Source: a virus (lineage: Duplodnaviria; Heunggongvirae; Uroviricota; Caudoviricetes). Taken from it: DNA of 16,973 nucleotides. Shown here in pieces: positions 14,704 through 16,973 of this stretch. Within the stretch, counting starts at the first letter, position 1. The number at the start of each line of letters is the position of its first letter. The stretch lies in IMG/VR virus record IMGVR_UViG_2529293240_000008, positions 1-16,973 of that record; one strand, written 5' to 3'. The notes below the pieces were generated by a model. That model made no database searches. It saw only the letters and a program-made list of their open reading frames with translations, and was not told where the DNA came from. Made by a program: the position numbers and the translations under genes.

Positions 14704-15316
14704 ATGATTCAGCTATCCAGTAGTCACAAACTTCCAGCCGTCTCCTATCTCTACCAGCGTAACGGCGTCTACTACTTCCGTCTTCGGGTCAGACAATCAA
14801 ACAATGATAGAATGACCTCAGTATCATTACGGACCAAGGATAGACGCACCGCTATGGCTCACTCAAGGCACATCAAGGCAGCACTCAAGGCAATACACGC
14901 AGACAGACCCAACGCTACCTATGAGGAGATGAGGGAGCACCTTAAGGACATCGCTGAGTGTGAACTGTCTATGGGCCGTTCAGATCTCTTTGAGCCTGAC
15001 ATGAGGGATATCTACCGGGACCAATACGGAGAACTTGGTGAGAGCCTTACCGATGCTCTGGCTAGTGAGCCGCTAAGTATTGACCAGCATCGTTACATCA
15101 ATGAGGCCCTGAAGGTGCTAAAAGCCTGTATGAGGCGTATCGAAGCGGGAGATAGTCAGCCTCTGATAGATTACGTCGATCGTTTTAATGATATTGATCG
15201 GCAAGATGACCAAGCCCCTGTGTCCCTATCTGTTAGTGCTCCAGAAGTAAAACCAGAAGTTACGCCTAGCATTACCATAGCGAGCCTCTTTGAGCAATAT
15301 GAAGCGGAGAACTCTC
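14704..15316 (+). pseudogene. Putative tyrosine-integrase gene, N-terminal (arm-binding type) portion, 3' end truncated by IS2
   Basis: N-terminus ...LPAVSYLYQRNGVYYFRLRV... resembles the integrase arm-binding motif (compare lambda Int LPPNLYIRNNGYYCYR). The ORF runs into the IS2 terminus, so its last ~13 codons and stop (15357) are IS2-derived. Weak RBS. Confidence 0.4.
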
Positions 15317-15327
15317 TGGATTTGCCC

Positions 15328-16233
15328 CTATATTTCCAGACATCTGTTATCACTTAACCCATTACAAGCCCGCTGCCGCAGATATTCCCGTGGCGAGCGA
15401 TAACCCAGCGCACTATGCGGATGCCATTCGTTATAATGCTCGAACGCCTCTGCAAGGTTCTTTGCTGCCGTTAACCCGTCTGGTTTGGGCATGATACTGA
15501 TGTAGTCACGCTTTATCGTTTTCACGAAGCTCTCTGCTATTCCGTTACTCTCCGGACTCCGCACCGCCGTGTTCTTCGGTTCAAGTCCCAACATCCGGGC
15601 GAACTGGCGTGTTTCATTAGCCCGGTAGCATGAACCATTATCCGTCAGCCACTCCACTGGAGACGACGGAAGATCGTTGCCGAAGCGGCGTTCCACCGCT
15701 CCCAGCATGACGTCCTGTACTGTTTCACTGTTGAAGCCGCCGGTAGTCACCGCCCAGTGCAGTGCCTCACGATCACAGCAGTCCAGCGCGAACGTGACAC
15801 GCAGTCTCTCTCCGTTATCACAGCAGAACTCGAACCCGTCAGAGCACCATCGCTGATTGCTTTCTTTCACGGCTACTCTGCCTGTATGTGCCCGTTTCGA
15901 TGGCGGTACAGCAGGTTTTCGCTCAAGCAACAGCGCATTCTGGCGCATGATCCGGTAAACACGTTTGGCATTGATCGCAGGCATACCATCAAGTTCTGCC
16001 TGTCTGCGAAGCAGCGCCCATACCCGACGATAACCATACGTGGGCAGCTCTCCGATAACATGGTGTATACGGAGAAGCACATCCGTATCATCAGTGTGAC
16101 GACTGCGGCGGCCATCCATCCAGTCATCGGTTCGTCTGAGAATGACGTGCAACTGCGCACGCGACACCCGGAGACAACGGCTGACTAAGCTTACTCCCCA
16201 TCCCCGGGCAATAAGGGCGCGTGCGCTATCCAC
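15328..16233 (-). CDS. insD: IS2 transposase OrfB (InsD, DDE domain)
   Basis: 301-aa track ORF with the IS2 InsD sequence ...[32 protein letters not shown]...; expressed as InsCD by -1 frameshift. Confidence 0.9.
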
Positions 16234-16556
16234 TTTTTTGCCCGTCCATATTCAACGGCTTCTTTGAGGAGTTCATTTTCCATCGTTTTCTTGCCGAGCA
16301 GGCGCTGGAGTTCTTTAATCTGCTTCATGGCGGCAGCAAGTTCAGAGGCAGGAACAACCTGTTCTCCGGCGGCCACAGCAGTAAGACTTCCTTCCTGGTA
16401 TTGCTTACGCCAGAGAAATAACTGGCTGGCTGCTACACCATGTTGCCGGGCAACGAGGGAGACCGTCATCCCCGGTTCAAAGCTCTGCTGAACAATTGCG
16501 ATCTTTTCCTGTGTGGTACGCCGTCTGCGTTTCTCCGGCCCTAAGACATCAATCAT
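16191..16556 (-). CDS. insC: IS2 transposase OrfA (InsC, HTH)
   Basis: [56 protein letters not shown]... (121 aa) starting at the ATG at 16556 inside the longer track ORF. Confidence 0.9.
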
Positions 16557-16649
16557 CTGTTCTCCAATGACTAGTCTAAAAACTAGTATTAAGACTATCA
16601 CTTAAATAAGTGATACTGGTTGTCTGGAGATTCAGGGGGCCAGTCTAGT

Positions 16650-16973
16650 GGCGGGTCTCATCGTCCATGGAAACGACATTCGTGCTGGATGCACTGGAGC
16701 AGGCGTTATGGGCCCGTCGACCGTCCGGCACGGTCCATCACAGTGATAAAGGTTCTCAGTATGTATCGCTGGCCTACACACAGCGGCTTAAGGAAGCCGG
16801 ATTACTGGCATCAACAGGAAGTACAGGCGACTCGTATGACAACGCGATGGCGGAGAGCATCAATGGTCTTTACAAAGCGGAGGTAATACACCGTAAGAGC
16901 TGGAAAAACCGTGCAGAAGTGGAACTGGCCACACTAACGTGGGTGGACTGGTATAACAATCGACGATTGCTGG
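16650..16973 (+). CDS. IS3-family transposase OrfB fragment (DDE core), interrupted on its 5' side by IS2 and running off the window
   Basis: Open frame without stop to the window end: ...[76 protein letters not shown]... (HHSD...GxxxDNA..ES integrase-core signature). Not in the ORF track because it has no in-window stop. Confidence 0.7.

Follow-up and report, generated by a model that had tools for sequence, protein, structure and literature searches.

Why does a complete copy of IS2 stand between two truncated genes of unrelated origin without the 5-bp target-site duplication that its insertion should have left behind? The stretch of DNA analysed here (the window; 16 973 nt) is the whole of contig AFOW01000009.1 from a draft assembly, GCA_000217895.2, for which a published strain table names Shigella flexneri J1713. 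Towards its right end, IS2 has a truncated integrase-like gene on its left and the interior of an IS3-family orfB on its right, a description given accurately in an earlier note on this DNA, which took the arrangement as the product of an IS2-mediated deletion or of recombination between two IS2 copies. Both IS2 and IS600 belong to the five IS that have expanded in Shigella, in which gene loss and frequent rearrangement are attributed largely to IS (Hawkey et al. 2020, PMC7373316), and a second study likewise links IS activity to gene loss and rearrangement in Shigella (Seferbekova et al. 2021, PMC8072062). The answer that we consider likely has two parts: this IS2 has no duplication as a result of a loss of DNA on its IRL side, by a deletion internal to a small island, while its IS629-type partner in the window is a chimera of the draft assembly.

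The IS2 copy and its ends

The IS2 copy starts with TGGATTTGCCCC at 15317 and ends with ...GGGGGCCAGTCTA at 16647, and both terminal inverted repeats are present (IRL TAGACTGGCCCC..., IRR ...GGGGCAAATCCA) (Table 1). In an ungapped position-by-position comparison with the annotated IS2A of Escherichia coli K-12, the ends of the two elements coincide and 7 of 1331 bp differ (99.5% identity), three of the differences lying in the IRL region; length, terminal sequences and intact insC and insD are all shared with the K-12 element. The overlapping insC (HTH) and insD (DDE/rve) frames are both open, as expected for a frameshift-fusion transposase, and the annotation of an identical copy, in S. flexneri 3a strain J17B, gives a fused transposase of 409 aa. 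What sets the window copy apart from K-12 IS2A, which is flanked by a clean ATTAC/ATTAC duplication, is the lack of a 5-bp target duplication. No 5-mer is common to both flanks in a scan of 15 flank bases and 6 IS bases per side, which returned two chance 4-mers (GCGG and TCTC) at offsets unrelated to the IS2 ends. The earlier report of a complete 1331-bp IS2 between CTCTC and GTGGC is therefore borne out, also with shifted ends, and the error for which that report had itself allowed, namely misplaced ends concealing a 5-bp repeat, was looked for and not found.

Table 1. Positions of the features discussed in the text, in window coordinates.
Feature	Position	Strand	Remarks
Virulence-plasmid (pINV) DNA: IS66 3' end, then TacA/GNAT toxin-antitoxin pair	1..2915	+	collinear with pJ17B_264
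IS600	2916..4178	+	left flank ATC (virulence-plasmid side), right flank ATT (prophage side); no 3-bp duplication
Hybrid tRNA-Gly(UCC), attL of island	14515..14589	+	5' 62 nt phage-type, last 13 nt glyU-type
Integrase gene, 5' 612 bp (204 codons), glyU-type island	14704..15316	+	catalytic domain missing; DUF6538 domain only
Left flank of IS2, CTCTC	15312..15316	.	integrase codons 203-205; junction common to J17B and IMG/VR contig L062
Complete IS2, 1331 bp	15317..16647	-	IRR left (15317...), IRL right (...16647)
insD (orfB, 301 aa), intact	15328..16233	-	ORF list; HTH_21/rve/rve_3 domains; coordinates transferred from K-12 insD1
insC (orfA, 121 aa), intact	16191..16556	-	inside 136-aa GTG ORF 16191-16601; ORF list; K-12 insC1 coordinates
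Right flank of IS2, GTGGC	16648..16652	.	nt 863-867 of IS629-type element; junction only in this contig
orfB interior, IS629/IS3411-type IS3-family element	16648..16973	+	nt 863-1188 of 1310; cut by contig end

The mismatch between CTCTC and GTGGC is informative because IS2 normally makes a 5-bp duplication, and random 5-mers match in 1 case out of 1024. It reflects the later history of the copy and not its identity as IS2. Among the seven complete IS2 copies compared, the window copy included, three have a duplication and four have none, and all four of the latter are in Shigella.

An island in a prophage tRNA gene

The early region of a lambdoid prophage occupies positions 4179-14589, with repressor-like genes, Rha/Ash, DnaC-like, DnaB-like, NinH and Q, followed after Q by a tRNA array of the order Met(CAT)-Arg-Thr-Gly; a prophage HTH gene lies at 4396-4944. 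The last of these tRNA genes is composed of two parts, 62 nt at the 5' end that equal the phage tRNA-Gly(UCC) and a final 13 nt that equal glyU. The crossover between the two types lies inside the shared GGGTTCGATTCCC, and the hybrid carries two stem mismatches. From 14590 onwards, the window resembles the DNA that follows chromosomal glyU (93.7% in E. coli, about 98% in other S. flexneri). In addition, the integrase gene starts 115 bp past the tRNA 3' end in the same orientation; its relatives adjoin chromosomal glyU in E. coli and S. flexneri, and the 534-544-aa integrase of these glyU-linked loci starts about 110 bp after the tRNA, also in the same orientation. Such a pattern is the signature of a glyU-type island that integrated site-specifically into the 3' end of the prophage-borne tRNA-Gly. 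Because the hybrid tRNA marks such an integration, the truncated integrase is not the prophage's own; the real prophage integrase, visible in relatives, has 428 aa and adjoins mlrA.

Intact relatives of the island integrase (534-544 aa) combine an N-terminal DUF6538 with a C-terminal Phage_integrase domain (PF00589), and intact copies of the gene, which encodes about 534 aa in full, read ...GAGAACTCTC|AGAACTGGAAGCC across the IS2 insertion point. The window copy is a pseudogene that has kept residues 1-204 and lost the PF00589 catalytic domain, its frame reading 13 codons into IS2 up to a stop at 15355-15357. A look-up of the exact protein of this chimeric ORF (14704-15357) gave AFOW01000009.1 as the single contig, and the gene list of that contig agrees with the window. 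A second S. flexneri assembly has an intact 534-aa copy after a tRNA array of this kind, but there the gene upstream is another one and the 3' end of the tRNA is phage-type. Since that related copy follows a similar phage tRNA array, such arrays may be recurrent landing pads for islands of this kind.

The hybrid tRNA gene also bears on the missing late genes. Both a related prophage of E. coli and ten complete Shigella genomes with an identical Q have genes for holin, lysozyme, Rz and terminase directly after tRNA-Gly, and the similarity of these prophages to the window ends at 14589, where the tRNA stops. The absence of lysis genes behind Q and the tRNAs is due to the island integration at tRNA-Gly, not to IS2. 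Thus, the proposal that the IS2 event had removed the lysis and structural genes is not supported; the island displaces them.

A wider reading of these observations, which we offer tentatively and with somewhat more doubt than confidence, is that a glyU-specific island used the prophage tRNA-Gly(UCC), with only a 13-nt T-arm core shared, that it uncoupled the late genes and that IS2 fixed the island in place. If this were so, an island between the late antiterminator Q with its tRNA array and the lysis and structural operon would uncouple the late genes from Q, and the loss of the integrase catalytic domain through IS2 would then have locked the island where it was. An island placed in a prophage tRNA gene and subsequently locked by IS2 would be a case of nested mobile elements, possibly deserving a systematic survey. 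The island in a phage tRNA gene is the sole mildly unusual feature of the locus.

The junctions compared with a closed genome

The closest comparison is with J17B, whose chromosome (CP100042.1) was closed with PacBio RS II and Illumina reads. Window positions 2910-16647 are 99.98% identical to it; over 11.1 kb of unique DNA, from prophage and island, there are 0 SNPs and one 1-nt indel, and the 2.9-kb plasmid part of the window differs from J17B by 1 SNP. J1713 and J17B are probably the same strain, a view based on this near-identity, on the likeness of the names (B read as 13) and on the sequencing centre, presumably the University of Maryland for both. That the two strains are no more than probably the same is a point on the side of a correctly assembled contig. 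The similarity between window and chromosome breaks precisely where the two complete ISs of the contig, IS600 and IS2, have their outer ends, and both ends of the contig itself lie inside IS elements, the left in an IS66 transposase gene and the right in the IS3-family orfB.

In J17B, this IS2 occupies the identical integrase codon and likewise has no duplication (flanks CTCTC/TAGCA). The step from a missing duplication to a rearrangement was sound. The window IS2 is 100% identical to this copy, as a correct assembly would also show. On the right side, J17B reads IS2-IRL|TAGCACCACG..., and about 210 bp past IS2 come homologues of the island Rha, hypothetical and truncated DUF6971 genes, followed beyond the island genes by IS600 and a phage capsid-protease gene. 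Both of the junctions seen in J17B recur in an independent IMG/VR contig (L062), which runs collinear with that genome over 6.3 kb. The DNA lost beside IS2 in both is island-internal and comprises the 3' two-thirds of the integrase gene and a spacer. The 240 bp after the J17B IS2 match nothing among the compared loci, and E. coli island matches begin only about 99 bp past IS2. Hence, of the proposed IS2-mediated deletion or recombination, the replacement of one flank after insertion stands, but the loss in J17B and L062 is confined to the island; and the comparison with a related genome that the earlier note had recommended does return IS2 without a duplication, but with island DNA and not orfB on its right.

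When each junction is judged by whether it recurs in an independent, near-identical assembly, the left one (integrase codon 204|IS2 IRR) is found in J17B and L062 and is therefore real, being common to three assemblies, in all of which IS2 is without a duplication, and the right one recurs in neither. The right flank itself is readily classified: window positions 16648-16973, a fragment only, share 99.7% identity with nt 863-1188 of a complete 1310-bp copy flanked by TTT/TTT and carrying an AL1L pseudoknot annotation (L001), which places them in the IS629/IS3411/IS1203 group. Assignment to IS3 proper was rejected on the same sequence match. The junction of IS2 with nt 863 of the IS629-type element did not turn up when 5426 complete E. 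coli genomes, 72 556 plasmids, GTDB species representatives, JGI metagenomes and IMG/VR were searched, and neither it nor the integrase|IS2 junction is contiguous in the 5426 E. coli genomes. Apparent matches to IS2 plus IS3 in E. coli genomes turned out to be IS629-type elements inserted in IS2, or other arrangements. The near-miss among the plasmids, pSLG231 of S. dysenteriae 1617, reads IS2 IRL, then CACTAA, then IS629 nt 862 in an error-prone assembly, and on the pINV of Sd197 the junction differs, with 86 bp of other DNA before IS629 nt 689.

Because the junction falls exactly at the IS2 terminus, IS2|GTGGCGGG must exist somewhere in J1713, and most probably it belongs to another of the IS2 copies there. 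A copy that abuts IS629 nt 863 was not located in J17B, whose chromosome was read in pieces, a point against the chimera. If that copy were a simple insertion of IS2 into IS629, its IRR side would read ...ATCGTGGGGTGGC|TGGATTTG with a GTGGC duplication, and the window would join the flanks of two copies.

The second complete IS of the contig provides an internal control. Window positions 1-4178 (the IS66 end, the TacA/GNAT pair, which we take to be GmvAT, and IS600) are collinear with the J17B virulence plasmid pJ17B_264, and the same IS66-TacA/GNAT-IS600 arrangement occurs on several other pINV-type plasmids among those returned. In J17B, IS600 is a simple insertion both in the plasmid, where its flanks are ATC/ATC, and in the chromosomal prophage, where they are ATT/ATT; in the window, the SNP pattern flips from plasmid-type to chromosome-type inside IS600. 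AFOW01000009.1 thus demonstrably fuses pINV plasmid DNA to chromosomal prophage DNA through IS600. Since plasmid and chromosome are separate replicons in the closed, zero-SNP match, this fusion is more simply read as an assembly join bridged by a repeat. Spontaneous, reversible, IS-mediated chromosomal integration of pINV is known in S. flexneri, where the documented cases used IS1294 (PMC5629016), and real plasmid-chromosome IS recombination of this kind could in principle explain the IS600 hybrid without any chimera.

Accounts of the locus and comparison with known systems

We propose the following history. An ordinary, intact IS2 would have inserted in the integrase gene of a small integrative island, which had previously integrated in a lambdoid prophage of S. 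flexneri 3a (the J17B/J1713 lineage), at the tRNA-Gly gene of that prophage. DNA on the IRL side of IS2 would later have been lost, leaving no 5-bp duplication; as J17B and the second assembly suggest, an island-internal, IS2-associated deletion may have taken the catalytic two-thirds of the integrase gene, and without it the IS2 IRL would adjoin CTCTCAGAACTGG. Recombination of two directly oriented IS2 copies or an IS2-adjacent deletion would each serve as the route, and an intermediate of either was not found. The IS629-type orfB fragment would be the flank of another IS2 copy, joined through the repeat by the 2011 draft assembler. As the contig demonstrably crosses the IS600 repeat into non-adjacent DNA, a second join of this kind at IS2 is credible, and the IS629-type partner in the window is in our judgement probably an assembly artefact. 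The claim that IS2 joins two unrelated truncated genes probably describes this artefact, the orfB junction being found in no other assembly searched.

The best-placed alternative is that the contig is correct. A strain-private IS2 x IS2 exchange is, we think, rather unlikely though by no means negligible, and much the same holds for the full account, in which J1713 would have undergone such an exchange with an IS2 copy inside an IS629-type element and, separately, an IS600 x IS600 fusion of pINV and chromosome. The exchange would swap right flanks and, by orientation of the copies, yield an inversion, a deletion or a translocation. Both junctions lie exactly at IS termini, as this account would have it; Shigella genomes hold hundreds of IS copies and rearrange frequently (PMC7373316, PMC8072062), pINV integrates reversibly through IS copies (PMC5629016), and the SNP switch inside IS600 fits a true crossover too. 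However, two independent IS events would have to bound one 11-kb segment that has 0 SNPs against J17B, two other assemblies show the J17B-type arrangement but none of them the J1713 type, and the documented spontaneous pINV integrations went through IS1294, not IS600. Nor did a protein from the reciprocal junction come to light in two weak tests. A peptide search for the reciprocal product (the IS629 OrfB N-terminus plus 13 residues) scored 160 candidates, and the matches listed were all of 104 aa or less; eight exact reconstructed variants were absent from the protein collection, a weak test because PGAP calls such genes pseudogenes. A truncated OrfB of 128 aa occurs on 433 contigs, and at the ten places shown among these none has IS2 beside the fragment, most being copies of IS629 that a group II intron interrupts further upstream.

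The scenario of the earlier note, an IS2-adjacent deletion (one-ended or intramolecular, from IRL) into a downstream IS629-type element that removed the rest of the island and the late genes, is very improbable. It would account for the junction exactly at the IRL terminus and for window tRNAs that are not followed by lysis and structural genes, but those late genes were displaced by the island integration at tRNA-Gly, J17B has no IS629-type sequence within 4.2 kb downstream of its IS2, and the S. flexneri genomes with an IS629-type copy in this prophage (L011 and L018) show it in the opposite orientation. Moreover, IS2 transposes by a copy-out/paste-in route by way of a circle, from which adjacent deletions do not readily arise. 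That a duplication is present but hidden by misplaced IS2 ends, or that IS2 inserted without making one, can be set aside almost entirely, for although transposition of IS2 can leave 1-2 additional bases at its IRL junctions, the ends coincide with those of K-12 IS2A and its ATTAC duplication, no common 5-mer appears within shifts of +/-6 nt, and the intact integrase continues AGAACTGG after CTCTC, unlike either right flank.

With the chimeric partner set aside as the probable artefact, the lesson is chiefly one about older drafts, in which a complete IS inside a contig can link stretches that lie apart in the cell, here plasmid and chromosome. Since chimeric joins occur in such drafts, a closed genome should be consulted before a missing duplication with unrelated flanks is called a rearrangement. 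The biological weight of the IS2 locus is small, as Shigella genomes are rich in IS and more than half of the IS2 copies compared have no duplication; an IS2 without one is ordinary IS-driven scrambling. Compared with IS-mediated deletions in Shigella, the present one is mechanistically the same and one more instance, except that here an island integrase was hit and not a metabolic gene. As in IS-mediated pINV-chromosome recombination (Pilla, McVicker & Tang 2017, PMC5629016), IS600 links pINV and chromosome in the contig, but those integrations used IS1294, and J17B keeps plasmid and chromosome separate, which makes an artefact the likelier reading. Finally, the island shares with P4-type tRNA islands and their tyrosine integrases the order of tRNA and then int, their common orientation, and an island-supplied tRNA 3' end. 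It departs from known tRNA-targeting islands in that its attB is a prophage-borne tRNA-Gly(UCC) and not chromosomal glyU(CCC), in its hybrid tRNA with two stem mismatches, and in an integrase of about 534 aa with an N-terminal DUF6538.

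IS600 and the plasmid-chromosome join

The IS600 copy of the window links virulence-plasmid DNA to the chromosomal prophage, and its flanks disagree (ATC/ATT). Both parent IS600 copies in the closed S. flexneri 3a genome J17B carry perfect 3-bp duplications, and SNPs within the window's element pass from plasmid-type at 3084 to chromosome-type at 3731 and 4135. Elsewhere in the window, a single base is deleted relative to J17B, and all other strains compared over this region likewise show one gap each against the window; the deletion is probably a draft sequencing error rather than a real difference.

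Coordinates of features in the window and in comparison sequences
Sequence	Position	Feature
Window	1-2915	virulence-plasmid DNA: IS66 end and TacA/GNAT toxin-antitoxin pair
Window	2916-4178	IS600
Window	5055	one-base deletion
Window	14515-15316	prophage-encoded tRNA-Gly(UCC) with glyU-type integrative island inserted at its 3' end
J17B (L032)	18086-20909	IS600 abutting interior of ClpP-like prohead protease/major capsid fusion gene
S. flexneri GCA_037574525.1 (L021)	951-2744	intact island integrase (534 aa) behind phage tRNA array
E. coli EC21Z-137 (L061)	1364-7183	related small island: integrase, hypothetical, Rha, further genes
S. dysenteriae 1617 pSLG231 (L048)	1749-3434	IS2 IRL, CACTAA, IS629 from nt 862

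The integrative island and its relatives

The island lies between Q plus the tRNA array and the site that lysis genes occupy in related prophages, and its integration has turned the prophage tRNA gene into a hybrid; the stems of the resulting tRNA contain two mismatches. Its integrase combines DUF6538 with PF00589 in relatives. The related prophages have a lambda-like late region of the S49-peptidase type, whereas in J17B the fusion gene met by IS600 downstream of the island remnant belongs to another head-gene type; this difference suggests an additional IS-mediated joint.

The intact integrase of GCA_037574525.1 stands behind a Met-Arg-Thr-Gly phage tRNA array; in contrast to the window, an ORF6N-domain gene takes the place of Q upstream, and the tRNA-Gly retains its phage-type 3' end. 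Chromosomal glyU is also occupied by a copy of the integrase in S. flexneri (L007, L009 and L010). The related island of EC21Z-137 sits inside a molybdopterin reductase gene adjoining ynfF rather than at a tRNA, and thus the integrase family is not strictly specific for tRNA-Gly.

IS629-type fragments and the IS2 junction

Many IS629-type copies of E. coli and Shigella are interrupted by a group II intron with an RVT_1/GIIM ORF (L050-L059 and L005). The intron site lies in orfB, upstream of nt 863 of the element. What remains after the split is the same C-terminal ORF of 128 aa, and 433 contigs carry an annotation of it.

A near-match to the window's joint of IS2 with IS629 occurs on the S. 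dysenteriae 1617 virulence plasmid, adjoining icsA and repA, where the IS629 breakpoint almost equals that of the window (nt 863). The junction on the Sd197 plasmid differs, with 86 bp of other DNA followed by IS629 from nt 689.
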